A DNA stretch of 64,000 nucleotides, from IMG/VR virus record IMGVR_UViG_3300037264_002228, positions 1 to 64,000 of that record. One strand, written 5' to 3'. Numbering within the stretch: position 1 is the first letter of the stretch; the number at the start of each line of letters is the position of its first letter. The position numbers and the translations under genes were made by a program. The DNA is from a virus. Below the pieces are notes generated by a model. It saw nothing but the letters and a program-made list of their open reading frames with translations. It did no database searches and was not told the origin of the DNA. Below are positions 1 through 14,082 of the stretch, piece after piece.

Positions 1-2
1 GC

Positions 3-890
3 GATTCTAGTGCCTCAAGTGCCTCAAGTGCATCAAGTGCGTCTAATTCTAGTGCGTCAAGCGACTCTAGTGCGTCAAGTGCATCTAATTCTAGCGCATC
101 TAGTGCATCAAGTGCATCTAATTCTAGTGCGTCAAGCGACTCTAGTGCATCTGCATCTAATTCTAGCGCATCTAGTGCATCTAGTGCCTCAAGTGCATCA
201 AGTGCATCTAATTCTAGCGCATCTAGTGCCTCAAGTGCATCTAATTCTAGTGCGTCAAGTGCATCAAGTGCATCTAATTCTAGCGCATCTAGTGCCTCAA
301 GTGCATCAAGTGCATCTAATTCTAGCGCATCTAGTGCCTCAAGTGCATCAAGTGCATCTAATTCTAGCGCATCTAGTGCCTCAAGTGCGTCAAGTGCATC
401 TAATTCTAGTGCGTCAAGTGCGTCAAGTGCATCTAATTCTAGTGCGTCAAGTGCCTCAAGTGCCTCAAGTGCATCTAATTCTAGTGCCTCAAGTGCATCA
501 AGTGCATCTAATTCTAGCGCATCTAGTGCCTCAAGTGCGTCAAGTGCATCTAATTCTAGTGCGTCAAGTGCGTCAAGTGCATCTAATTCTAGTGCGTCAA
601 GTGCCTCAAGTGCCTCAAGTGCATCTAATTCTAGTGCGTCAAGTGCATCAAGTGCATCTAATTCTAGTGCGTCAAGTGCCTCAAGTGCCTCAAGTGCATC
701 TAATTCTAGTGCGTCAAGTGCATCAAGTGCATCTAATTCTAGCGCATCTAGTGCCTCAAGTGCGTCAAGTGCATCTAATTCTAGTGCATCTAGTGCATCT
801 AGTGCATCTAATTCTAGCGCATCTAGTGCCTCAAGTGCGTCAAGTGCATCTAATTCTAGTGCATCTAGTGCATCTAGTGCATCTAGTAAT
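3..890 (+). repeat. Coding tandem repeat built from 9-nt (AGTGCVTCW; SAS) and 15-nt (AGTGCATCTAATTCT; SASNS) units
   Basis: Directly visible mosaic of the two units over about 890 nt. Confidence 0.95.
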
Positions 891-944
891 AGTAGCTCTA
901 GTAGCAGTCTTTCTAGTGAATCTAGCTCTTCGCAGTTGGGTTAA
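3..944 (+). CDS. Serine-rich repeat protein, C-terminal part (5'-truncated by the window)
   Basis: Frame starting at nt 3 reads DSSASSASSASSASNSSASS...SNSSSSSSLSSESSSSQLG, stop TAA 942-944. Repeat variation (gca/gcg/gcc, tca/tct, agt/agc) is synonymous in this frame and non-synonymous in the 10..957 frame. Confidence 0.85.
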   Translation, partial: DSSASSASSASSASNSSASSDSSASSASNSSASSASSASNSSASSDSSASASNSSASSASSASSASSASNSSASSASSASNSSASSASSASNSSASSASSASSASNSSASSASSASSASNSSASSASSASSASNSSASSASSASNSSASSASSASSASNSSASSASSASNSSASSASSASSASNSSASSASSASNSSASSASSASSASNSSASSASSASNSSASSASSASSASNSSASSASSASNSSASSASSASSASNSSASSASSASNSSASSASSASSASNSSASSASSASSNSSSSSSLSSESSSSQLG

Positions 945-953
945 AGATATAAT

Positions 954-1628
954 ATGAACGGATTTAAAAGTGTTTTCCAAATTCTTGATGTTGATTTTAA
1001 TGCTAGACGTACTGATTATCATATAATAGAATTAAATAATATTAAAATTGGTAGAGTATATCCTGGATTGCTTGATTATATTGATCAAAACATAATAATT
1101 GAAATAAGTCCAATAAACTTTTTAAAACTTGGGTCGTATGCATTAGAGGGACCTATTGGTCTTGGACATTATTATCCACAATATGATTCTTTTACAATAA
1201 ATACTTATTCAATTACACCACGCATATTATTAAGAACCGATACATTTAGTGATGGATTTTTATTCATATCAAGATTCAGAGATGAGTATAAACGTAGGCA
1301 GGTATTTATTAGAAGCGACTTCAAATCATCTATTATTGAACCAAACATTATAAATTCTATATGGTTACATGAATTATCAAATTTTACGCCAAATGGATTA
1401 ATTGACATTAATCTACTTAATAATAATCGACATGAAGATGGGACACAAGATACACATTCTTTTATAAATGCATATACTTTTCTACACAATATGCATGGTG
1501 AAGTTACTATTTATTATTCTGATAAAGATACATTAGGCAACCCAGCAGGACTTAATGCTGATTATGTTGGTAGTGGGACATCTGGCATAGACCCTAGATT
1601 TAACATTCCTACATTAGATCCACAATAA
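954..1628 (+). CDS. Hypothetical protein (possibly virion-associated)
   Basis: 224-aa ORF preceded by the AAAGATA-N4-ATG motif; no family recognised. Confidence 0.6.
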   Translation: MNGFKSVFQILDVDFNARRTDYHIIELNNIKIGRVYPGLLDYIDQNIIIEISPINFLKLGSYALEGPIGLGHYYPQYDSFTINTYSITPRILLRTDTFSDGFLFISRFRDEYKRRQVFIRSDFKSSIIEPNIINSIWLHELSNFTPNGLIDINLLNNNRHEDGTQDTHSFINAYTFLHNMHGEVTIYYSDKDTLGNPAGLNADYVGSGTSGIDPRFNIPTLDPQ

Positions 1629-1635
1629 ATAAAGT

Positions 1636-2979
1636 GTGAAATTAGCTATTATTGTAATTAGTCAGGCTGCTGATTTACAAAATATTCATCAATTCGTTCC
1701 AAAATTTAAATTAACTACAATAGACAAAATACTTAATGAGTCACAAATAGTAATTCATTTTAATACGCCAAATTGTGATAAGCTATTACAAGATATATCA
1801 ATTTTAAAACTATATGATTTTGAAATTAAAGCTATTATAATACAATATCAAACTAGCATTGATAATTATAAATCAATATTAACACAATTAAAATGTTATG
1901 ATATAGAGAATATTGTTATAGGCAGTGATAATGTTAGTAATTCAGAATTTGTCAAAATATTAGTACAAAAATTGATAATAAACAATTCATCAAAGCAAAC
2001 TGTAATTGAACAGAAACAAACAACAAATAAGTTAATTGCGCCTAGTAATATTAAGAATGACAATAACGACATAAGTAAACAAAAACATGGACGAGAAAAG
2101 CATAAAGGACATTTAATTGGTCGATATTTACAATCACCATCGATGTTGTTTAGTAGAGATAGTCATAACATATGGATGGGAGACATGTATCGTGGGCGTA
2201 GTGCTTTTCTAATTTTAGGTGGTCCAAGTTTTGCACAAGTCGATAAAACAAAACTAAATAATCCAGGAATATTAACAATGGGTGTTAATAATTCTGTTAA
2301 ATCATATAGACCAAATATGTGGGTATCTGTCGATGATCCATCACATTTTATTAAATCAATTTGGTTGGACCCAAAAATAACGAAATTTGTACCATTTTCA
2401 CACACTGAAAAAACAATTTTTGATAATGAGTATTGGAAAGAAACAACTATTAAAGTTGGTGATTGTCCAAATGCTTGGTATTTTAAAAGAAATGAAAATT
2501 TTGTAGCTGAACAATATTTATTTGAAGACACAATAAATTGGGGCAATCATAAAGATTTTGGTGGTGGCAGAAGTGTTATGTTAGCTGCCATTAGAATATT
2601 GTATTATTTAGGCATTAGAACAATTTATTTATTAGGTTGTGATTTTAAAATGGACGAACAGTCCAAATACCATTTTGATCAAGATAGATCAAAATCATCA
2701 ATTAAAGGAAATGCATCAACGTATAAATTGTTAATTGATAGGTTTACTAAATTAAAACCAATATTAGATGAAAATGGATTAGAGGTGTTTAATTGTAATC
2801 AATCTTCTGGTTTAACTGTGTTCCCATTTGTTGATTTTAATGATGCAATTCGTATTGCTAGTTCTGAAATGCCATTAGATATAGAAAATGAACGTACAAA
2901 TGGTTTATATGATCGTCTTGCTAAAATAAAAGAAGCCAAAGAAAAAGAAGCCAAAGAAAAAGAACAGAAAATACAATGA
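1636..2979 (+). CDS. Maf/DUF115 (MptE-like)-family putative glycosyltransferase with N-terminal extension
   Basis: AFLILGGPSF...GVNN...VSVD...SVMLAAIRILYYLGIRTIYLLGCDF pattern typical of the Maf/DUF115 and Cst-II-like transferase fold. Confidence 0.7.
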   Translation: MKLAIIVISQAADLQNIHQFVPKFKLTTIDKILNESQIVIHFNTPNCDKLLQDISILKLYDFEIKAIIIQYQTSIDNYKSILTQLKCYDIENIVIGSDNVSNSEFVKILVQKLIINNSSKQTVIEQKQTTNKLIAPSNIKNDNNDISKQKHGREKHKGHLIGRYLQSPSMLFSRDSHNIWMGDMYRGRSAFLILGGPSFAQVDKTKLNNPGILTMGVNNSVKSYRPNMWVSVDDPSHFIKSIWLDPKITKFVPFSHTEKTIFDNEYWKETTIKVGDCPNAWYFKRNENFVAEQYLFEDTINWGNHKDFGGGRSVMLAAIRILYYLGIRTIYLLGCDFKMDEQSKYHFDQDRSKSSIKGNASTYKLLIDRFTKLKPILDENGLEVFNCNQSSGLTVFPFVDFNDAIRIASSEMPLDIENERTNGLYDRLAKIKEAKEKEAKEKEQKIQ

Positions 2980-3707
2980 ATTTAAATGATATAACGTTAG
3001 TAATAGCTATAGATAAACACCATTTAAAAGAACTATCTTATACATGGCCTACATGGATGAAATTTAAACCAGAAATTAAACTAATGAAAAAAATTGTAAT
3101 TTATGATAAAACACAAATAAGAATGAAAGATTTATCATTATTTGATGGCCATGATGTTCGTTTTGTGCCATGGGACATGGATGGTGTATGTCAGCGAGAA
3201 AAGATGTTAACTTCCTTTATAGTTGTGCCGCCTGCTGAAGTAACAACCAAATGGTATCTTAAATTAGACGTAGATGCTATAGCTACAGCACCAGGAGAAT
3301 GGATAAAAGATGAATGGTTTGAGCCACAAAATGGTAAAAACCCTGTCTATATTTCACATGGTTGGTCATTTAGTAAACCAGCCAATGTGTTACAAACATT
3401 AGATGAGTGGGGTGATACAATAGAGCCACTTAAATTTCATCAACGCCTTAATATTCCATTTAAATCAACGTCAGATAGAGTAATGTCTAAAAGAATAATT
3501 TCTTGGTGTTTTTTTGGTAATACTGAATGGACTAAATTTATTAGTAAATTATGTGGAAATAAATTGCCAGTAGCTTCTCAAGATACTGTGATGTATTATT
3601 GTGCAACTCGCTTAGGTGAACACACAGTTCGTACTAATATGAAAAAATTAGGTTGGGATCATTTGAGATTACATAATTTGCGAAAATTAAGTGAAAAATT
3701 AAAATGA
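2976..3707 (+). CDS. Putative GT-A glycosyltransferase
   Basis: WYLKLDVDA DxD motif, downstream SQDT; overlapping start/stop within the GT cluster. Confidence 0.6.
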   Translation: MNLNDITLVIAIDKHHLKELSYTWPTWMKFKPEIKLMKKIVIYDKTQIRMKDLSLFDGHDVRFVPWDMDGVCQREKMLTSFIVVPPAEVTTKWYLKLDVDAIATAPGEWIKDEWFEPQNGKNPVYISHGWSFSKPANVLQTLDEWGDTIEPLKFHQRLNIPFKSTSDRVMSKRIISWCFFGNTEWTKFISKLCGNKLPVASQDTVMYYCATRLGEHTVRTNMKKLGWDHLRLHNLRKLSEKLK

Positions 3708-4516
3708 CAAGTGGTGTAGTTTATTATAATGTTGGTAGGTCTTGTGCTGTTAGGCTGTTAGTGTCTGCGCATAGTTTAGTAAAACATTACACAGGTGACA
3801 TTACTATCTTATCTGATGGTAATGAATCACATTCTTATTGTAAACAGATTGCATCAGCCCTAAATATTAACTATAAAGAAGTATTATTAGATATGGATCG
3901 TGATCAACATAATTACCCATATTTGGTAAAAACACGTATAAATGAAATAGCGCCTTATGACTATAATGTTTTTATTGATGCTGATACATTAATAGTTGGT
4001 AGTATATCTGAACTTTTTAATTCATCTCCATTTACAATAACAAGAATGTGTGAATGGAGCACACAAAAAAGAACAATTGCTAATAGAATTTCTTCGTGGT
4101 CACATTTAAAACCAGAATTAGTTGATAAAGCTATAAAATATGGTAAGGCAATTAACACTGGTGTATATTCTTTTGATAGGAATGCATCAATATTTAATGA
4201 ATGGTATGATTTAACTTTAGCTAACAAACAATCTTTTATACCAGATGAAGTAGCATGTCAATTATTAATTACGGTACATGAACACAAATTATTAGATTGT
4301 AGATTCAACTATTCATGTAAATATGGTCCAAATATTGATGACATTAGAATCATTCATTTTCATGGTAGAAAACATTGTAGGCCAGGATTGCCATATAATG
4401 GTATAAAATGGGTAACTGCATATAATGAAGTAGTAAAACTTAATTTGGCGAATATTAAAACATGGCAACCAGCAGGTGATAAGATGTTATATAAATATTT
4501 GAAATCTAATGAATAA
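3704..4516 (+). CDS. Glycosyltransferase, GT8-like
   Basis: VFIDADT, INTGV, PDE, FN..., IIHFHG motifs of GT8-like enzymes. Confidence 0.75.
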   Translation: MTSGVVYYNVGRSCAVRLLVSAHSLVKHYTGDITILSDGNESHSYCKQIASALNINYKEVLLDMDRDQHNYPYLVKTRINEIAPYDYNVFIDADTLIVGSISELFNSSPFTITRMCEWSTQKRTIANRISSWSHLKPELVDKAIKYGKAINTGVYSFDRNASIFNEWYDLTLANKQSFIPDEVACQLLITVHEHKLLDCRFNYSCKYGPNIDDIRIIHFHGRKHCRPGLPYNGIKWVTAYNEVVKLNLANIKTWQPAGDKMLYKYLKSNE

Positions 4517-5141
4517 AGTATCGATTTGTATTACTGTAAAAAATAGGAGTAAAGTATTAGGAAGAACAATACTACTTAATACTGTTAGGTCAATAATAAA
4601 CAACATAACAGATAAAGACAATATTGAATTAATAATAACAGATTGGAATTCTACTGATTGGCCGTTAAAAGAATGGATTTATGATGAAGTTAAACATGTT
4701 CAATTTAAGTTGATAACAATTGATAAGCAAGGTTTTAATAGAGGTATTGGATTAAATACTGCAGCTGAACATGCGACTGGTAATGTGTTGTTTTTTAGTG
4801 AGTCTGATGTGATGATTGATAGGCCAACAATTGATTTGGCTTTAAAAATTGAAGATAAAGCTTTATTTCCTCGTATAAGAAGGACAACACCAACTAGTCA
4901 TTTAATAGTTAGAGAAAGTAGGCGTTGGTTGCGTGGGTTTGGGATTGCTATAGTACGACGCGAGTGGTGGGAAACGGCTGGACATTATAAAAGTTTTTGG
5001 TTTGACTCTACTAACTGGGGTGGCGAAGATAATCAATTCCATGCTGATATTGTATCATTAGGTATACCTATAGAACGACCAAAAATGAATAATTTAATTC
5101 ACCAATGGCATCCAAGGAAAATGTTCAATGAACAAGTTTGA
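4509..5141 (+). CDS. Glycosyltransferase, GT2/GT7-C-like
   Basis: VSICITVKNR, DWNSTD, FNRGIGLN, ESD, WGGED, HQWH. Confidence 0.8.
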   Translation: MNKVSICITVKNRSKVLGRTILLNTVRSIINNITDKDNIELIITDWNSTDWPLKEWIYDEVKHVQFKLITIDKQGFNRGIGLNTAAEHATGNVLFFSESDVMIDRPTIDLALKIEDKALFPRIRRTTPTSHLIVRESRRWLRGFGIAIVRREWWETAGHYKSFWFDSTNWGGEDNQFHADIVSLGIPIERPKMNNLIHQWHPRKMFNEQV

Positions 5142-5844
5142 AATTTGTGTGCAGCAATATTCTTTTACTAAAAGATGTTGGTGGCAATTAAGTAGTTTGG
5201 CAGAACAAACATTAAAAACCAACTTTACGCTTAGATTGAGTATTCATAATAATGATCCATTTCGTGAATTAAATAATAAATTAATATCAACATTTAGTAA
5301 TTTAATTGATTTAAAAGTAAAAATTTGGACTAATGATACGTTTTTTAGACGTGGTGATGTTCGCAATACTGATTTAGTTGAATCATCACGGCAATGGATA
5401 ATATTTGCCGACGCTGATGTAATATTTGATAAATCATTTTTTGAAAAACTTAATAATATTACATTGATACAAAATAAAATGAGTGTTATTAGACGGTTTA
5501 ATACGTCAATAGATGATGGTTATAAACTTATTAATTCAGAAACATATAATACTTATATAAAACGACCAATAACTAAAATAATGAAATTTCCGTTACAACG
5601 AAGTTCGTCAATTGGTGCTGGATATTTCCAGTTAATTAATGCTGATTTTGTTCGTAATAAAGGATTAAAATATAGTAAAGATACCATAGATAGACCATTA
5701 ATAGAACGTAGAGGCCCAACATATAGATCAGATAGACAACTTAGAGGGATTCTAGGCCTTAATCGTATAGATATTGCGCCCATATATCATATTAATCATT
5801 ATAGATTAAAAAATAAAGAAAGAATAGCGACAGGATGTCAATGA
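5128..5844 (+). CDS. Glycosyltransferase, GT-A (GT2-like)
   Basis: RN...WIIFADADVIF, GYFQL, YHINH. Confidence 0.7.
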   Translation: MNKFEICVQQYSFTKRCWWQLSSLAEQTLKTNFTLRLSIHNNDPFRELNNKLISTFSNLIDLKVKIWTNDTFFRRGDVRNTDLVESSRQWIIFADADVIFDKSFFEKLNNITLIQNKMSVIRRFNTSIDDGYKLINSETYNTYIKRPITKIMKFPLQRSSSIGAGYFQLINADFVRNKGLKYSKDTIDRPLIERRGPTYRSDRQLRGILGLNRIDIAPIYHINHYRLKNKERIATGCQ

Positions 5845-6404
5845 ACACTTTTACAAAAGACTGGCACGGTAGGCATGCTAAAAATTGGAATAGAATATTG
5901 GGCCAATATAAAAATCAGCCAAATATTCGTTATCTTGAAGTAGGTGTATATGAAGGTAAATCGTCATGTTGGGTGATGGACAATATATTAACACATTATA
6001 CGAGTACAGCTACTGGCATCGATCCATGGGTAAATTCAGATGAACAATTCAGAATAGCTACGTCTAATTTAAGAAAATATGGTAATAGATACACAATCAT
6101 GCGTGGATATTCAACAACAGTATTGCCAACATTAACTAACATAGAAGACATAATATATATTGACGGCGACCACCATGCTGATGCTGTTTATAATGATGCG
6201 ATTTTATGTTGGCCAAAATTAAAAATTGGTGGTATATTAATATTTGATGATTATAATTTGCGTTTGCGCAGACATAACCGTTCAGGCGGTGAAGCAGGTA
6301 TACCAAGACCTGGTATAGATAAATTTTTATCATTAATGAGTAATTGCATTAATATCGAAAAAACAAGAACTCAAGTATTTGTTAAAAAAATTATTAAAAA
6401 TTAA
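5835..6404 (+). CDS. Class I SAM-dependent methyltransferase (Methyltransf_24-like)
   Basis: LEVGVYEGKS, IDPW, IYIDGDH, LKIGGILIFDDY. Confidence 0.85.
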   Translation: MSMNTFTKDWHGRHAKNWNRILGQYKNQPNIRYLEVGVYEGKSSCWVMDNILTHYTSTATGIDPWVNSDEQFRIATSNLRKYGNRYTIMRGYSTTVLPTLTNIEDIIYIDGDHHADAVYNDAILCWPKLKIGGILIFDDYNLRLRRHNRSGGEAGIPRPGIDKFLSLMSNCINIEKTRTQVFVKKIIKN

Positions 6405-6413
6405 GGTTGTAGT

Positions 6414-6992
6414 ATGAATTCGAGATTAACATATAGTAATATTGTACAATCAATTGTTCCTAAAAATTTTAAACGTAAAATTCTAATCGATTGTGGTTTC
6501 CATAAAGGGCTATATACAAAAGCATTTTTACAGAAGAATCATGATTTTATAGTGTATGCATTTGATCCAATTAAGATTGAACCCATATTACCAAATGTTA
6601 ATTTTATTAATAAAGCCGTTTGGATAGAAGATTGTGTTAGAAAAATATATTTAAGTCATAGAGATGATGCTTCATCACTAATTAGTACAGTGGCTGTTGA
6701 TGTTAAAAAATCAATAGATATAGAATGTATTAATTTTAATAAGTGGATTAATGATAATTTTACTAGTGATGATTATATTCATGTAAAACTAGACATTGAA
6801 GGTGCTGAATATCAAGTTTTACATAACATGATTAATGGCGGATCTATAAAATTGATAAGTGAATTAGTATGTGAATGGCATAGTAAAATCTGTTCTAGAC
6901 AATATAGACAAATTATGTATATAACTGATGATTTGTTTATGGAAAAATTAAAAACATTTGATAATATAAAACTTTTAAGTAAATGGATATGA
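6414..6992 (+). CDS. FkbM-family methyltransferase
   Basis: IDCGFHKG, AFDP, KAVW, VKLDIEGAEY, EWH. Confidence 0.85.
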   Translation: MNSRLTYSNIVQSIVPKNFKRKILIDCGFHKGLYTKAFLQKNHDFIVYAFDPIKIEPILPNVNFINKAVWIEDCVRKIYLSHRDDASSLISTVAVDVKKSIDIECINFNKWINDNFTSDDYIHVKLDIEGAEYQVLHNMINGGSIKLISELVCEWHSKICSRQYRQIMYITDDLFMEKLKTFDNIKLLSKWI

Positions 6993-7735
6993 AAACATTG
7001 ATATTCCTATGCGGTTATGATGATTTTTATTTCAAACTAGCTAACATGACCGCGCATACAATTCGTTTATCTGGTTATAAACAAGACATAGTTATTTTTA
7101 CTATTGATGATCGTAAATCAGACTATGCAAAATGTATAAACCTGGCGTCACATAAAGAGTCTAATTTAATTATAACACAGAAAGAAGGTGGTTTTTTCCA
7201 TCGTAAATTATGTAAAGAATTTGGACATAAGCAGTATGACAAACAGTATGATTTCTTTGTAATAAAAACACTTCCTGGATCTATAATCAAAAAAGAAGAT
7301 TATGATTTTATATTGTATATGGATTCTGATATGTTGGTCCATTCCTCATTAGATAAAATTTTTACATATAAAACAGTTGTATCTGATTTTAATAGTAAAA
7401 ATGCTTATAAAGACTTAAAAGGATTATCTAAACACTTAACATCGCAAGAAGAAAGTGTTGCACGTAGTTTATCTGGCATTGGTGGTGGTGGATTTGGTGT
7501 CCCGTCTAGTCACTATAGATGGTTTGATGATTATAGAAAAATTTATCTTCAATATATCAATGAAATCCCACATGATCAACCAGCTCTGACTATGACTATG
7601 ATAAGACATTATAATGATTATAAAGTGGAAAAATTACCAAATCGTGCTTATTGGATACATTATTGGGGCTATAGAAAAGCACAAATGATAAAAGATTATG
7701 ATGCAAAATACGCAAATTGTATTTTAAATAAATGA
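6983..7735 (+). CDS. Putative GT-A glycosyltransferase
   Basis: ILYMDSDM DxD motif, HDQPAL, IHY. Confidence 0.65.
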   Translation: MDMKTLIFLCGYDDFYFKLANMTAHTIRLSGYKQDIVIFTIDDRKSDYAKCINLASHKESNLIITQKEGGFFHRKLCKEFGHKQYDKQYDFFVIKTLPGSIIKKEDYDFILYMDSDMLVHSSLDKIFTYKTVVSDFNSKNAYKDLKGLSKHLTSQEESVARSLSGIGGGGFGVPSSHYRWFDDYRKIYLQYINEIPHDQPALTMTMIRHYNDYKVEKLPNRAYWIHYWGYRKAQMIKDYDAKYANCILNK

Positions 7736-8826
7736 GAGTACTGATCACATCGGATATACACTTTGGTGTTCCAGGAAAATTAGAACATACATTGTGGGCC
7801 TCTAAAGTTATAAGAGAATACGCACATAAGCACGATATTGGTACTATTTTGGTGCTTGGTGATTTATTTCATGATAGAAATAATCTTAATATACAGGTAT
7901 TAACTACGGCATACGATTTTTTCGACGAGACAAGTCGGGACTATTCACAAGAATGGATAGCATTTCCAGGCAACCATGATATGTTTTTAAAAAATTCATG
8001 GAAAGTTAATTCTGTAAGGCCATTGAATCGACTTATTACAATTATTGAAGATATTAAAGCTTTTAGCATAGATGGTAGAAAATTCTGGGTTCTGCCGTTT
8101 GTACATTATGAGTCAGCTTATATGCAAGTAGTACGAGCTATAGAAGCGAAAGCTTCTCCAGAAGATATATTGTTGACTCATATTGGTGTGCATGGTGCAT
8201 CATTAAATGAATGTTTTTTATTGAAGCATTGGAGTCTTGTTAATTTTTCTGATACGATTTTTAAACGAGTGTACTCAGGGCATTTTCATTGTTATCAACA
8301 AGTTGGTGAAAAAACTTGGTATTCTGGAAGCCCAATACCATTTAGATTCGATGAGGGTCTAGTAGAGCATGGATTTTTAGAGTTTGATACTACAACATGT
8401 GAACATAAATTTATAAAGATATTCGAAGCAGGTAAGCAATTATTACCAGACCTGCCACCAGCTCCTGATTTTGTAACTTGTATTGATACATCAATAAATA
8501 ATATTGATTTTACAAATAGTAATGCTAGAATTTGTTTGTCACGTGATTATACCAGCAATGAATTATCAGAATTACGATTGATGTTAACTAACAAAGGTGC
8601 ATTATCAGTGAAATGGATAAAGGCCAAACAACAAGAAGACAAAGAACTACAAACAACAACTACGTCTAATATGGGTGATGGTGCCGCGTTATTTCATAAA
8701 TGGATTGATCATGATAAGCCAGAACATATAGATTTGAATACACTTCAAGAATTAAATAAACAGGTTGTAGAAGAAGGCATGGAGAGGCTGTCCAATACTG
8801 AGGACCATAATGGCGATTCCGCTTAA
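7732..8826 (+). CDS. Recombination nuclease, T4 gp47/SbcD/Mre11-like
   Basis: Metallophosphoesterase motifs SDIH, GDLFH, GNHD, SGHFH; adjacent to the gp46-like gene. Confidence 0.92.
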   Translation: MRVLITSDIHFGVPGKLEHTLWASKVIREYAHKHDIGTILVLGDLFHDRNNLNIQVLTTAYDFFDETSRDYSQEWIAFPGNHDMFLKNSWKVNSVRPLNRLITIIEDIKAFSIDGRKFWVLPFVHYESAYMQVVRAIEAKASPEDILLTHIGVHGASLNECFLLKHWSLVNFSDTIFKRVYSGHFHCYQQVGEKTWYSGSPIPFRFDEGLVEHGFLEFDTTTCEHKFIKIFEAGKQLLPDLPPAPDFVTCIDTSINNIDFTNSNARICLSRDYTSNELSELRLMLTNKGALSVKWIKAKQQEDKELQTTTTSNMGDGAALFHKWIDHDKPEHIDLNTLQELNKQVVEEGMERLSNTEDHNGDSA

Positions 8827-10951
8827 AATAAAAACCATAGAATGGTCAAATTTCATGAGCTATGGTGATTATCAAACATCACTTGAGCTAAATTCTTTAG
8901 GGCCAGTTTTAATTGTAGGCCAAAAGGATGGTCAAAAAGATGAAAGCAACGGTGTAGGCAAAACAACTATCACAACTGCTATAATATGGTGTTTGTTTGG
9001 TAGAACACCTAGACGTGCAGCCCCTGGAGATAAAGTCATAAATTTTTATACAAAGGGCGAATGTTATGTCAAAATAATAACAATTGATGACTGGGTTATA
9101 ACACGCACTAGAAAATTAAATGGCCATGATGATTTATTGGTCCATAAAGATGGCGAAGATGTAACATTGTCAACAACAAAGCATGCTCAACTATTGTTAA
9201 AGAAATTATTTAATCTTGATTACGACATATTCATTTCAAGTATGTTCTTTGGACAAAGAACAGAATCGTTTCTTGAAATGAGTGATATGAAGCGTAAAGC
9301 AGCATTAGAACGATTATTAGGTTTGAATCGTTTAAATGTATGGGGCGATGTAGCAAAAGAAAAACGGATAGTTGCTGAATTAGAACAACAGAAAATAAAA
9401 ACAATAATTGAATCAAAACAATGGGCTGTTAATACTGTTCAGACCCAAATAGATAACGCCACACAATTAGAGCGCACATTTGAGAGTGACAGGTGTAATA
9501 AGATAGAATCTATTAAATCGGAATCTGAAACACTAAGTTCAATAGAATTCGATCACAATAAATTTGAAGAACTAAAAACTGAATTTAATATTTACAATGA
9601 TAATAAAAATAAATTGTTGGATATCAATAAAAGACTCGGACAAGCTCAAGATATGTGTGTCCAACTTAAATCTGATATCGACCAGCAAAGCAAATTAATC
9701 GTGCAATATAAGAATAGATTGATGTTGCTTGGATCTATTGATGTTGATGTTATTGAGACCGCACATAAAAATGCCAATTTGGCTGAACAAAATAAATTGA
9801 CACTACAAGATAAAATTAATAAACTAGCATTAGAAAAACGAAAACTAGAACAAGATCTTCGTCAGCTGATTGATTCAATTAATGGGTGGAACAATAAAGC
9901 TGGTACAAATTGTCCATCGTGTCAACAACCAGTTACAAAAGGCCATACAGACAATATTTGTAAACCATATTTAGATCAGGGCAAGTTATTGAAATCTAAA
10001 ATTAAAACAATTAGTGATGATTTAATTATTATAACTAATGAATTCAATAGAATTAAAATTGAGCGACCAACAACAACTTTGGTCGCAGCTATCAGAGACA
10101 AACAAGAAACTGATATAATAAATGCTAATATTAAAGAATTAAATGATAAAATTGTTATTAAAAAAGAACAATATAATAAATTATGCAAAATGGTGAACGC
10201 ATATGGAGTACAGAATAGTAAATTAGGTCTTATAGTAGATAGTTCAGATATTCAAACTAGATATGATGCTATGCAAATTGAATTTAATGAATTTAATAAC
10301 AGGTTAGTATTGATTGGTCAACTAAACTCACGACTAGTAGAAGAACAATCCAGAGAGAATCCGTATCGTGGCATCATTAATTCATTGTCTATTGAACTTA
10401 ATAATGTTAAAAATGAGCTTAGTACTCATTTGTCGAATGTTGCCCAGTTAGATATTAATATCAAATCTTATGATTATATTAGACATAGCTATCATGATCG
10501 TAATAAGATAAAAATGTTCATTTTGTCTGGATTAATACCATATCTTAATCAGAGAATAGAATACTACTTAAATGCTTTTGAATGTGATTTAATATTGAAG
10601 TTTACATCAACATTGTCTATTGAAACATCTAGGTGGGATTACGATTTCCATTCTGGTGGACAACAAAAAAGAATTGATATTGCAATCATGTTTGCGTTAT
10701 ATGATCTATATATTTCGATGTATGGTCAACAGTGCAATGTTATGGTTCTAGATGAAGTTGATGGTGCATTAGATTCTCATGGTGTTAGAATGTTTGTTGA
10801 CATTATCACTAATGATTTCTCTGGTGATAGGCCAGATAAGCCAGACACTATATTGGTAATAAGCCACAAGAATGATATGGTAGATCAATTTCCTAATCAG
10901 ATTATAGTATCTCAAGACGCACAAGAATACTCCCATATTTTAAAGACATAA
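8810..10951 (+). CDS. Recombination ATPase, T4 gp46/SbcC/Rad50-like
   Basis: Walker A NGVGKTT, coiled coil with CPSC zinc hook, signature SGGQ, Walker B VLDE, ISH. Confidence 0.93.
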   Translation: MAIPLKIKTIEWSNFMSYGDYQTSLELNSLGPVLIVGQKDGQKDESNGVGKTTITTAIIWCLFGRTPRRAAPGDKVINFYTKGECYVKIITIDDWVITRTRKLNGHDDLLVHKDGEDVTLSTTKHAQLLLKKLFNLDYDIFISSMFFGQRTESFLEMSDMKRKAALERLLGLNRLNVWGDVAKEKRIVAELEQQKIKTIIESKQWAVNTVQTQIDNATQLERTFESDRCNKIESIKSESETLSSIEFDHNKFEELKTEFNIYNDNKNKLLDINKRLGQAQDMCVQLKSDIDQQSKLIVQYKNRLMLLGSIDVDVIETAHKNANLAEQNKLTLQDKINKLALEKRKLEQDLRQLIDSINGWNNKAGTNCPSCQQPVTKGHTDNICKPYLDQGKLLKSKIKTISDDLIIITNEFNRIKIERPTTTLVAAIRDKQETDIINANIKELNDKIVIKKEQYNKLCKMVNAYGVQNSKLGLIVDSSDIQTRYDAMQIEFNEFNNRLVLIGQLNSRLVEEQSRENPYRGIINSLSIELNNVKNELSTHLSNVAQLDINIKSYDYIRHSYHDRNKIKMFILSGLIPYLNQRIEYYLNAFECDLILKFTSTLSIETSRWDYDFHSGGQQKRIDIAIMFALYDLYISMYGQQCNVMVLDEVDGALDSHGVRMFVDIITNDFSGDRPDKPDTILVISHKNDMVDQFPNQIIVSQDAQEYSHILKT

Positions 10952-10964
10952 TCAAATATAGTGT

Positions 10965-11489
10965 ATGGCCGCTGACAATAAGGCATTTATAGATAATGTC
11001 AAACGAGTATTCAGTGATGAATATATCAAACGTAATTTAATTAAATATTTCTCTGATAAAGGGTTTGATAATTTTAATCGTACTATATTCCCACCAATGT
11101 TACAAGACTTACCATATGCCGTACCAGAGCTTGTTAATAAGGTCGAAATTGTTCCATACGTAAAAGAAACCAACCCAACTACTGGTCAAGTTACTATGGG
11201 ATGGAATTTGTTCGTATTTGGTATCAACCGTATGGATCTTGGTGATTCATTACATAATAACATGAATGATTTTCAACAAGCCATAAATGGACCAACAAAT
11301 CAACAATATAATGCAATGAAATCTCCTAAAAATATAATCGACTTCATAATGAAAGTACTTAAAACTAGTAAACAGGGCATAGTTCATCCACAAGTCAACC
11401 AAACACTTCAACCGCCTCGCCCAGTCAATAGACCAAAAATGGGCCCATCAGCATCTGGCGGCTATTACGAAAAGAATAGACCAGTTTAA
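10965..11489 (+). CDS. Hypothetical protein
   Basis: 174-aa ORF with AAATATA-N4-ATG upstream. Confidence 0.65.
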   Translation: MAADNKAFIDNVKRVFSDEYIKRNLIKYFSDKGFDNFNRTIFPPMLQDLPYAVPELVNKVEIVPYVKETNPTTGQVTMGWNLFVFGINRMDLGDSLHNNMNDFQQAINGPTNQQYNAMKSPKNIIDFIMKVLKTSKQGIVHPQVNQTLQPPRPVNRPKMGPSASGGYYEKNRPV

Positions 11490-12598
11490 TTTTTGGCTCC
11501 TATATTTAGAGCCAAACAATGTACCTTAATTGTCTCGCGTAGTGCATCTATTTCTTTAATGTCTTTGCCGAGATATTCAGCTAGGTTGGCTCTGTGTAGT
11601 TTATCTGTGCCGAATCGTTCAATATAGTCTAATGGAGTATCGATTATGATATCGAACAGTTTCTGTGCATCTGATGACAAGCGTTGTCTTAGAACGATCA
11701 TATCCTCGTTATAATTAGACATATCTGGTTCGGCATGAATGATTTGAGCTTTGTGCTCACAATGGTCACGATGGCTGCTTTCGGTATCGTCGTTAGTACT
11801 ACCACTATCTAAGCTTGTATACTTCGCATATGTTTTTTCAACAATTTGGAAAGATACGGTACTAGGTATTTCTAGGACAGATACAACATTAATGGCATTC
11901 CAATCTAACTGAATTTGTACGCCATGTGTTTCGAACTCGTGTTTGATGTCAACGACTTTCTGTAATATCTTCAACGGAAGAAGTCCAGTTTCGCACCTAA
12001 TTACGTTATGGTCAATATCAATCATTTCTACTTCAGTTTGATAATTTTTAATACTGTGTAGAATCGATATGATCGCCTTTACAGCAATATCAGAAGCGAG
12101 GCCCTCTTCGGTTCTGGTTTCCTTTATTACTGGTGGCTTGTTTTCGCGCAGAATTTGTCTCAAATAATTAAACATTACTGATTGGAAAAACTTCTTGCGT
12201 TTAATTGGATCATTGGCAATTTGTGGCTTAGGGGACCACTTTAAGACTAGATCATACCCACATACTGTGCACTTATCTATTTTATTTTTTGTGGTAACGA
12301 AGTGTTTTTGGCACGAATTATTAGTGCACTGTCTAGATTCATGGAACAACACCATGATAGCTGCTTTCCAGAACGTAATTTGACAATCCTGTTTGCCAAC
12401 ATCAAGATCTTTATATTCATTACCAATGGTACGCCCAAGAGCCATACAGAATTCCATTTTTTGGCCTTGGATGTTAGGGTCTTCCCAGGCATCCTTCATT
12501 AAAGCATTTACTTCTTTCATTTCGTCCTTTGATAATTGTTTTGCTGTGTCGTTCATCAATGAACCACGTAAAAACAGCCGCGCTAATTGGTTGCTCAT
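11486..12598 (-). CDS. Sigma-70-like factor with an inserted zinc ribbon
   Basis: Region-2-like DVGKQDCQITFW...FNYLRQILR, SLD, C-terminal HTH LSSDAQKLF...LAEYLGKDIKEI; CTNNSC...CTVC insert; RBS GAGG. Confidence 0.55.
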   Translation of the reverse strand: MSNQLARLFLRGSLMNDTAKQLSKDEMKEVNALMKDAWEDPNIQGQKMEFCMALGRTIGNEYKDLDVGKQDCQITFWKAAIMVLFHESRQCTNNSCQKHFVTTKNKIDKCTVCGYDLVLKWSPKPQIANDPIKRKKFFQSVMFNYLRQILRENKPPVIKETRTEEGLASDIAVKAIISILHSIKNYQTEVEMIDIDHNVIRCETGLLPLKILQKVVDIKHEFETHGVQIQLDWNAINVVSVLEIPSTVSFQIVEKTYAKYTSLDSGSTNDDTESSHRDHCEHKAQIIHAEPDMSNYNEDMIVLRQRLSSDAQKLFDIIIDTPLDYIERFGTDKLHRANLAEYLGKDIKEIDALRETIKVHCLALNIGAKN

Positions 12599-13074: not shown

Positions 13075-14082
13075 GTGAATTATAGATCACAGCCAAAACC
13101 TCAAATTCAACGTGTTAATGTTCGAATGCATCCAGTACCAGTTGTTAAAAAACAGTCCCCACAAATGTCCGTAATTCATAAACCTGTATCAAGACCCACT
13201 TTACCAGTAGTGAAACATACGTCTAATAATGTACAGAAACCAGTAGTAACTACGTCTAAGCCTCAGCCAGCAGTAAGACAAGAAGCCAGACAAAATATTA
13301 AAGTAAAACCGAATATTCAAGTTAATAGATCACCAAATGTAGTAAAACCAAGAAATATTTCTAGACATTCTAGTTCAATGTCAGCGCAGCACCAAAACTT
13401 GTTACAACAATATAAAGAATCTGTTGATAAGTTGCGTTGTGTTGGCAATAACAAAATACTTATTATTGTAGCTTGTGGACCTTCTATATTAAATGTTAAC
13501 ATTGAAGAATTAAAAGATTATAAAAACATCGACATAATGTGTATTAACAAACCAGACAAAAGAGTATGGCCATCACCATATTGGTTGTTCTGTGATCAAA
13601 GTCAATACGCACGTAACCAAGACACATGGGAACAATATAATGGGATTATCATAAATGCTTCATCGGTTCGTGCTCGGCATAGGCGTCAGGTATTAATTAA
13701 AAGCCTGTCTGGTCGCGGATTTTCAAGAGATTTAGCTAAAGGATTTTATATTGGTAGATCATCAACATACTCAGCAATGCAAGTGGCATTATGGATGAAT
13801 TATAGTAAGATATATATATTCGGTGTTGATATGTGTGCTGTTGATGGTAAATTACATTATTATGGTAAGAATCCTGACGTGTCAGATACAAATAGAGTAC
13901 AACGGTTCGATAGAGAAGCAGAAAGTTATATGCACGCAGCCACTAGCGTTTTAAAACAAGAGGATAGAGAGAAATTTGTTTTTTGTTCATCTTACAATAA
14001 ATATAAATTTGTTGATTATTTTCAGCGGTTGGATGAAAAGGAAGCTGTATCAATTATAATAGAGCAGGCAAATAAACTTTAG
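13075..14082 (+). CDS. Second Maf/DUF115-like putative glycosyltransferase with a basic, low-complexity N-terminus
   Basis: IIVACGPSI...CIN...FCD...SSTYSAMQVALWMNYSKIYIFGVDM...HYYG. Confidence 0.7.
   Translation: MNYRSQPKPQIQRVNVRMHPVPVVKKQSPQMSVIHKPVSRPTLPVVKHTSNNVQKPVVTTSKPQPAVRQEARQNIKVKPNIQVNRSPNVVKPRNISRHSSSMSAQHQNLLQQYKESVDKLRCVGNNKILIIVACGPSILNVNIEELKDYKNIDIMCINKPDKRVWPSPYWLFCDQSQYARNQDTWEQYNGIIINASSVRARHRRQVLIKSLSGRGFSRDLAKGFYIGRSSTYSAMQVALWMNYSKIYIFGVDMCAVDGKLHYYGKNPDVSDTNRVQRFDREAESYMHAATSVLKQEDREKFVFCSSYNKYKFVDYFQRLDEKEAVSIIIEQANKL

Follow-up and report, generated by a model that had tools for sequence, protein, structure and literature searches.

A Maf-like transferase cassette behind a serine-rich fibre tail in a large uncultured phage and its possible role in virion O-glycosylation

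Which molecule is modified by a set of sugar-handling enzymes that a bacteriophage encodes directly behind a serine-rich gene? The question is raised by positions 3 to 7,735 of a stretch of 64,000 nucleotides (the window), bases 1-64000 of the 98,443-bp IMG/VR virus record IMGVR_UViG_3300037264_002228 (G000; handles beginning with G or L are ours and denote genomes, contigs or loci). There, the 3' part of a fibre-like gene with a Ser-rich tail precedes a cassette of putative glycosyltransferase (GT) and methyltransferase genes led by a Maf/DUF115-like transferase (Maf1). A first reading of the sequence (the original prediction) proposed that the phage builds a glycan coat on its own Ser-rich virion protein. 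On balance we favour, as somewhat better than an even call, cytoplasmic O-glycosylation, with methylation, of the Ser-rich distal tail of a collagen-like fibre, a reading drawn from sequence and structure comparison.

The cassette, its lead enzyme and the fibre tail

The ten genes after the fibre gene form one coupled unit comprising a small fibre-associated protein and nine soluble enzymes (those itemised are one Maf-type enzyme, five of GT-A type and two S-adenosylmethionine (SAM) methyltransferases). All gene junctions from 954 to 10951 measure between -17 and +13 nt and, counted from the fibre stop at 944 to 10951 with that between the stop and 954 as the first, they are +9, +7, -4, -4, -8, -14, -10, +9, -10, -4 and -17 nt. 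None of the products encoded from 954 to 10951 contains a hydrophobic stretch of transmembrane strength, and Maf1 starts 692 nt past the stop of the serine-tail gene. The fibre gene and every other gene given below by its window coordinates lie on the + strand. The predicted layout, with a Ser-rich gene, one gene of no assigned function and then a tightly coupled run of glyco-enzymes, was thus recovered with open reading frames (ORFs) where they had been placed, and the cassette is real.

Maf1 (1636..2979) matched phrog_4603 at E 2.8e-10 and PF01973 below the cut-off, and a precomputed table of a large protein database lists PF01973 for it. Residues 1-121 constitute a flavodoxin/CheY-like domain and residues 146-413 an MptE/GT42-like catalytic domain. 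In an AlphaFold (AF2) model built on 28 homologues (pLDDT 78), the catalytic domain had as its best match, rank 1 of 48,161 chains, the Maf structure 5MU5_A, with Z 13.3 and a root-mean-square deviation of 3.8 over 201 residues. The next fold matches were MptE HPPK (Z 10.6) and Cst-I (9.1), with Cst-type and mammalian sialyltransferases at 8.5-9.1, and Foldseek agreed on the fold, returning CstII at E 1e-3. Since the Maf1 family profile found no match among the Protein Data Bank (PDB) sequences, it is the fold comparison alone that links Maf1 to Maf; according to the model, Maf1 carries the MptE/GT42-like nucleotide-sugar-binding fold, as in Maf, and the Maf-like nature proposed for the lead enzyme was borne out in this sense. 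Homologues of Maf1 number 816; they lie on contigs as long as 500 kb and are 50-65% identical over the C-terminal 300 amino acids. A locus search with the Maf1 protein alone returned no match.

The frame of the gene preceding the cassette (3..944) is open from base 1 of the contig, so the gene is truncated at its 5' end by the contig start, and the remainder encodes a Ser/Ala/Asn-rich tandem-repeat tail of at least 313 residues (64% Ser, 26% Ala and 7% Asn in frame 3). Two frames are open across the serine repeat. Between repeat copies, codon position 3 was mismatched twice as often (0.52 vs 0.26, frame 3), and the synonymous variation uses GCA/GCC/GCG, TCA/TCT and AGT/AGC. Frame 3 is taken as coding because the differences between copies concentrate at codon position 3, which fits synonymous drift, and the same pattern excluded the Val/Leu/His-rich frame 1 of positions 1-957. 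The 23 Asn residues of the tail fall mostly within a recurring A-S-N-S-S unit that reads as an N-x-S sequon, and linkage through Asn may be possible. An exact search for the serine-repeat DNA gave no match. The contig of L004, like the window, starts cut inside the serine repeat; such repeats probably break short-read assemblies, and counts of Ser-rich genes in metagenomic phage contigs are probably too low.

A complete homologue of the truncated gene was found in the closest relative, the 122,824-bp contig of L016, which is syntenic with the window from the ORF at 954-1628 through gp46 at 52-80% identity. Its 651-residue product (L016:7355-9310) ends in an SNSSASSASSA repeat as in the window, and its N-terminal part of ~430 residues has 33 relatives. 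In the alignment of this fibre family, two collagen-like Gly-X-Y tracts, of six and four triplets, are invariant, and the end is rich in Cys. The N-terminal domain matched nothing in Pfam or PHROGs; a monomer model (pLDDT 65) predicts an immunoglobulin (Ig)-like sandwich between the Gly-X-Y tracts, which matches only generic Ig folds (Z ~7), with collagen-repeat phage proteins at template modelling (TM) scores <0.2. The C-terminal module varies within the family, being a Ser tail in the closest members and otherwise an Ig-like domain, a 'CCRGY' domain or a very long extension. A conserved anchor, a collagen-like shaft and a swappable tip are the usual layout of phage fibres. In L171 and L194, members of the family lie among genes matching tail-fibre, collagen-like minor tail and endosialidase-chaperone proteins. 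The collagen-like tracts and this gene neighbourhood suggest that the fibre is likely to be on the virion, and the protein is probably modular and trimeric. Exactly one genuine Ser-rich ORF was detected in the 98 kb of the window's record and exactly one in the 123 kb of the closest relative, both beside the cassette.

The gene between the fibre and Maf1 (954..1628) encodes a 224-residue protein without a Pfam or PHROG match that travels with the fibre gene (52% identical in L016, 38% in L004). It is homologous to the N-terminal ~190 residues of a 911-residue protein encoded after the fibre gene in cassette-negative relatives (E 1e-14 for the match in G006). On the other side of the fibre gene, directly upstream across the lineage, lies a gene for an actin-fold protein (L016:6060-7337 and relatives; Pfam Volactin, E 2.5e-56).

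Pairing across loci and the fibre slot

The original prediction called for a survey of whether Ser-rich and Maf/GT genes co-occur in related phages. We surveyed 34 loci, namely 27 non-redundant viral loci, six from contigs of metagenome-assembled genomes (MAGs) and the window, and counted as Ser-rich any ORF with at least 50% Ser/Thr over 40 residues that was not embedded in a longer ORF. They do co-occur: a Ser-rich ORF lay no more than 2 kb from a Maf1-family gene in 11 of the 34 loci (the window, L004, L016, L021, L022, L023, L025, L027, L155, L159 and L160), which span GC contents of 37-62% and two collections, and anywhere in the retrieved flanks in 16 of the 34. The binomial probability of 11/34 is 3e-9 to 3e-4 at a background of 3-10% per locus that was assumed, not directly measured (a rough count on the contigs gave ~5-7% Ser-rich per 4-kb neighbourhood), and the loci are not all independent. 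The globular parts of the partner ORFs are mutually non-homologous, the Ser tract being their only shared feature. Most Ser-rich partners matched nothing in Pfam or PHROGs; the recognisable modules are surface- or adhesion-like (FG-GAP, LamG, Big_13 and RHS). In L025 a tape measure gene (E 2e-33) is followed by a 314-residue ORF, a Ser-rich protein of 649 residues and Maf, a context that also supports a structural role for the serine-tailed gene. For a putative tail protein of L026 an Atlas search gave only unnamed viral clusters. A trio formed by Maf1, the transferase type encoded at 2976 in the window and a GT8-like transferase recurs in about 20 of the 34 loci and is 50-63% identical across phages with GC contents of 26-66%. 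Five of the six MAG contigs with close Maf1 homologues (L155-L160) were binned as Verrucomicrobiota (Roseibacillus, Verrucomicrobiia, Akkermansia and Opitutia), which may point to the host phylum of some of these phages or may reflect mis-binning.

The window's record was estimated by CheckV to be 23% complete, corresponding to a genome of roughly 400 kb, and complete relatives in the lineage compared here measure 341-395 kb and have terminal repeats (the complete genomes at hand were G003, 192 kb; G010, 370 kb; G011, 395 kb; and G014, 341 kb). The genome encodes gp47/gp46-type recombination nucleases, a tail sheath and a PurZ-like protein. Positions 1-12000 of the window gave no megablast match to cultured phages, and the best cultured-phage matches of the gp46-like protein share only ~25% identity with it; by both measures the source phage is far from every cultured phage.

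Gene order in this lineage is conserved as volactin-like gene, fibre gene, a variable slot, gp47, gp46, a 174-residue ORF, a 370-residue ORF and a second Maf-like gene (Maf2), and the content of the slot follows the end of the fibre. In the first state (A: the window, G001 and L004), a Ser-tailed fibre is followed by the 224-residue ORF and the Maf1/GT/methyltransferase cassette, of which L004 has the trio only. In the second (B: G006 and L161), a fibre with an Ig-like end is followed by the 911-residue protein and an oxygenase of the prolyl-hydroxylase-type family 2OG-FeII_Oxy_3 (L123:10435-11028 in G006). In the third (C: G007 and L164), a short Ser/Thr/Pro-rich fibre tail is followed by a GT2, a protein matching the hydroxyproline O-arabinosyltransferase (HPAT) family at E 4.6e-33, an ORF of no assigned function and an NAD epimerase (L164:11466-14749, with identical copies in L165 and L168). 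The HPAT family is known from the glycosylation of plant extensins and CLE peptides. In the fourth (D: G012 and G013), the fibre end is globular and gp47 follows directly. L068 encodes a fibre without a tail and has HPAT and the unassigned ORF in its slot. The set of GT2, HPAT and NAD epimerase after a collagen-like fibre gene is also listed for L069. Between the fibre slot and gp47 of L164, a helicase gene is interrupted by an intein with a LAGLIDADG endonuclease (L164:15115-17928).

Within the lineage compared, the cassette occupied the slot only beside Ser-tailed fibres; eight relatives whose fibres end in a globular module lack it, the complete 370-kb and 395-kb genomes among them. Profile and tblastn searches of these two whole genomes (G010 and G011) found no Maf1, no 2976-type GT and no GT8-like GT, and no convincing poly-Ser ORF was detected in them. 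The slot contingency was 3/0 vs 2/8 (Fisher P 0.035). Gene order, the folds and families of the enzymes and this comparative association are established. Because three protein-modifying enzyme sets occupy the same slot, each matched to the end of the fibre, the fibre itself is the best candidate for the substrate, and we regard this as the strongest argument for the favoured reading.

If so, the Maf-like enzyme would put the first sugar on serine hydroxyls of the tail in the infected cell, as Maf does on flagellin, the GT-A enzymes would lengthen the glycan and the methylases would cap it, and the mucin-like Ser tail would then bear a dense glycan brush at the distal end of the fibre. The acceptor, the order of these steps, the donor sugars and the place of the fibre on the particle are what we infer. 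A wider generalisation is advanced tentatively, as a possibility that we hold to be less than even: that large uncultured phages use a DUF115/Maf enzyme and two partner transferases to make mucin-like brushes on poly-Ser stalks, and that the locus behind the fibre gene is a swappable modification slot with at least three chemistries (O-glycosylation of serine, arabinosylation of hydroxyproline as in extensins, and prolyl hydroxylation as in collagen), each paired with an end module of the fibre.

Maf2 (13075..14082), a DUF115/Maf-like paralogue, matched phrog_4603 at E 1.6e-8 and PF01973 at 30.2 bits, and hhalign aligned it with the Maf1 family at a probability of 72%. Nearly every relative examined has it at a fixed position behind the 370-residue reverse gene, whether or not the cassette or Ser-rich genes are present, and it was found in G001, G006, G007, G010, G011, G012 and G014. 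Given this distribution, Maf2 may lie outside the system.

Remaining enzymes and candidate acceptors

The second member of the trio, a putative GT-A-like transferase (2976..3707; 2976-type or GT243), has no Pfam match but an invariant D98 within a DVD motif, weak profile matches (hhalign probability of 28% against the GT8-like family) and the Atlas label 'putative glycosyltransferase', and it co-occurs with Maf1 in about 20 loci. The third member (3704..4516) is a GT8-like, glycogenin-like transferase, presumably retaining, with weak matches to PF01501 (15.1 bits, cut-off 24.3) and PF11051; its family profile, built from 16 homologues, matches glycogenin-2 at E 8.5e-5 across the DxD segment only, and D92, D94, H218 and H220 are invariant in the family. 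A GT2-family glycosyltransferase (4509..5141; PF00535 at 39 bits vs a cut-off of 23.3, residues 5-160) is followed by a probable GT-A transferase (5128..5844) with PF00535 and PF01501 matches at E ~1e-3, below the cut-offs, a DAD motif at residue 95 and weak profile-profile matches, whose homologues adjoin Maf1 in several loci. A class I SAM methyltransferase (5835..6404; Methyltransf_24, PF13578 at 75.1 bits vs 26.3) and an FkbM-family methyltransferase (6414..6992; Methyltransf_21, PF05050 at 27.0 bits vs 22.7) come next. The former is a candidate sugar O-methylase, a sugar substrate being suggested for both by their context. The last gene of the region (6983..7735) encodes a probable GT8-like transferase without a Pfam match (hhalign probability of 50% and E 1.6e-4 against the GT8-like family, across the DxD region) and is the most conserved of the cassette, at 80% identity in L016. 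Two methyltransferases had been predicted, and both exceed their Pfam thresholds; among the four GT-A proteins and one further GT that had been predicted, Pfam upholds the GT2 at 4509-5141 and leaves the other four plausible but weak.

Beyond the window, the record encodes KdsA at 76412-77188 (L002:12412-13188), a SIS+CBS arabinose-5-phosphate isomerase-like (KdsD-like) protein at 88438-89382 (L003:4438-5382) and a nucleoside diphosphate (NDP)-sugar 4,6-dehydratase/epimerase at 95462-96460 (L003:11462-12460); a CMP-Kdo synthetase was not found in the 98 kb. KdsA and the KdsD-like protein as a donor pathway for the cassette were rejected, since relatives lacking the cassette encode both and five contigs with the trio lack KdsA.

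Several observations weigh against the fibre tail as the acceptor or against a Maf-type chemistry. Maf1 aligned with PF01973 only over residues 287-339 and its 25.8 bits miss the gathering score of 34.6, the assignments of four GTs (those at 2976, 3704, 5128 and 6983) are weak at the sequence level, and no cytidine monophosphate (CMP)-sugar synthetase (CTP_transf_3) was detected in the 98 kb of the window's record, one being present in one of five related contigs, 12 kb from the Maf gene. The structural block of the window lies at 28-64 kb and the cassette adjoins recombination genes instead. The slot correlation amounts to about one evolutionary event, the cassette-positive genomes forming one clade. 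Ser-tailed fibres also occur without Maf1, in G014, in L171 (a Ser tail of 160 residues with no cassette within 9.5 kb) and probably in L194. G014 encodes a poly-Ser fibre and two further poly-Ser proteins but no Maf1 trio, and a LamG protein of 1339 residues with two poly-Ser tracts, for which the sequence suggests a beta-helix domain, adjoins Maf2 there. In the 355-kb contig of L171, a Mom-family protein (E 1.2e-21) with a helix-turn-helix domain is encoded 4 kb downstream of the Ser-tailed fibre (L171:16070-17479).

Relatives carrying the GT cluster without any Ser/Thr-rich gene had been named in the original prediction as evidence that would speak against it, and the picture found was mixed. 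G002 (88% complete) carries the trio but lacks poly-Ser ORFs and encodes only a collagen-like protein with Gly-Tyr-Ser repeats, and in G003 (complete) and G005 the trio lies 13-72 kb from Ser-rich genes. Because the trio is strongly conserved in contigs without a nearby poly-Ser gene, its conserved primary acceptor may be something other than the variable Ser tract. The neighbours of the trio in G003 are DNA ligase, PARP, RNA ligase, FkbM, sulfotransferase and GT2/GT92 genes. The PARP gene there encodes a protein with WGR, PARP-regulatory and PARP-catalytic domains and lies between DNA ligase and RNA ligase 2 (L034:10941-12293); it adjoins the Maf/GT trio, the sulfotransferase and a radical-SAM fusion.

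These contigs lend support to the idea that the cassette glycosylates other phage proteins, such as capsid, sheath or tail subunits, or ordinary surface Ser/Thr residues, the Ser tail being a neighbouring flexible spacer. The poly-Ser linkers of G014 and L171, which occur without Maf1, fit the same idea, as do the mycobacteriophages, in which the acceptors are capsid and tail-tube subunits (summarised in PMC12619734). We nonetheless consider it rather unlikely, given that the pairing within 2 kb recurs in almost a third of the loci with unrelated partner proteins and that, at the fibre slot, gain or loss of the cassette goes with gain or loss of the Ser tail.

Remodelling of a host surface glycan (the core of lipopolysaccharide or lipooligosaccharide, capsule or another) from the cytoplasmic face, with a superinfection block or a surface change as the outcome, is the published default, Iyer et al. 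2021 having read the GT clusters of jumbo phages as modifying outer polysaccharides (PMC7824862). The fold-sharing Cst-type sialyltransferases act on lipooligosaccharide, and the genome encodes KdsA, the KdsD-like isomerase and the NDP-sugar dehydratase; against this, the Kds genes also occur in cassette-negative relatives, no lipid-carrier transferase, flippase or polymerase family was matched among the cluster ORFs in Pfam or PHROGs, and the conservation of the trio over so wide a range of GC content implies very different hosts and host glycans. This explanation, which also leaves the association with Ser-rich ORFs unaccounted for, seems to us improbable.

We know of no DUF115/Maf-type enzyme acting on DNA, which counts against the last explanation, a hypermodification of phage DNA with glycan like that by the T-even glucosyltransferases and newer 5-hydroxymethylcytosine (5hmC) glycan systems. 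Although the cassette adjoins the gp47/gp46 nuclease genes and the G003 trio adjoins DNA ligase, PARP and RNA ligase genes, the PurZ-like gene implies that the genome does alter its DNA, and phage GTs adding diverse glycans to DNA exist (bioRxiv 10.1101/2023.12.21.572611), we hold it to be very improbable, as no thymidylate-synthase-type hydroxymethylase was detected in the record's 98 kb or in any of five contigs with the trio (one complete), five or six transferases with two methylases are a large set for base modification, and the Ser-rich association is left unexplained.

O-glycosylation of the fibre tail thus keeps the cassette, the Maf-like fold and the co-occurrence in its favour, whereas the weak GT assignments and one further element of the prediction do not help it. 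A late-like motif at the start codons 954 and 1636, held to favour modification of the particle, was not confirmed: TATAAATA precedes only 2 of 125 ORFs, and a looser ATATA-type element near start codons precedes structural and non-structural genes alike.

Significance and comparison with known systems

To our knowledge, the phages shown to carry glycans on their particles are so far a few mycobacteriophages, in which the glycans altered recognition by antibodies. If Maf-type enzymes coat poly-Ser stalks, glycosylated virions would be common among environmental giant phages, as judged by the number of Maf1 relatives, and would bear on adsorption, host range, particle stability, stickiness to mucus or particles and recognition by grazers and immune systems. 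The DUF115 family would also gain a second, non-flagellar class of protein substrate, and the cassettes would offer compact, soluble and self-contained enzyme sets for the cytoplasmic glycosylation of Ser-rich tags. In a literature search, no paper was found that connects DUF115/Maf enzymes to phage proteins or to poly-Ser tracts.

The nearest relative by fold is the Maf of Magnetospirillum magneticum (5MU5), which resembles Maf1 in its catalytic domain, in being soluble and cytoplasmic and, if the fibre is on the particle, in its pairing with a Ser/Thr-bearing protein of an external filament. Maf enzymes transfer a CMP-activated nonulosonic acid to Ser/Thr of flagellin. Maf1 is, however, only 14% identical to 5MU5 and has the N-terminal flavodoxin-like domain in place of the flagellin-binding regions; the phage has no flagellin, and neither a nonulosonate pathway nor a CMP-sugar synthetase was found in the 98 kb. 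The presumed phage acceptor is a low-complexity tail, whereas Maf acts on folded flagellin domains.

The serine-rich repeat protein (SRRP) loci of Gram-positive bacteria place a long Ser-rich repeat acceptor beside cytoplasmic glycosyltransferases, including the GT-B pair GtfA/GtfB, and an accessory Sec system (SecA2/SecY2 and Asp). The window too has a Ser-rich repeat gene next to a soluble glycosyltransferase set, with repeats of SSA/N type in place of the SASASAST type and with release presumably by lysis, not secretion. No GT-B/GT4 (GtfA/GtfB-type) Pfam match was obtained at E up to 0.1 among the ten ORFs at 3-7735, and the SecA2/SecY2 and Asp families were not searched for. The likeness to SRRP loci drawn in the original prediction thus stands as an analogy and does not extend to membership.

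Chloroviruses carry capsid glycans with methylated sugars, and mimivirus has glycosylated fibrils and collagen-like proteins. These giant viruses share with the system proposed here the use of viral enzymes to glycosylate surface proteins in the cytoplasm independently of the host, together with methylated sugars and modified collagen-like proteins, and differ in infecting eukaryotes, in their enzyme families and in their acceptor motifs.

Closest among phages are the mycobacteriophages, whose own transferases modify the C-terminal ends of their structural proteins (Freeman et al. 2023, Cell Host Microbe, as summarised in PMC12619734), and for the 'moraphage' jumbo lineage virion glycosylation has been cited as a possibility for four core GTs (PMC12619734). 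The system predicted here shares phage-encoded transferases and, presumably, the C-terminal end of a structural protein as the acceptor. The mycobacteriophage systems consist of one to a few GTs acting on capsid or tail-tube subunits of small siphophages, whereas in the window a Maf-type enzyme is joined by five GT-A-like enzymes and two methylases, all encoded beside a poly-Ser collagen-like fibre in a phage of ~400 kb. Phage virion glycosylation being already known, the Maf-type, poly-Ser form would be a new variant of it.

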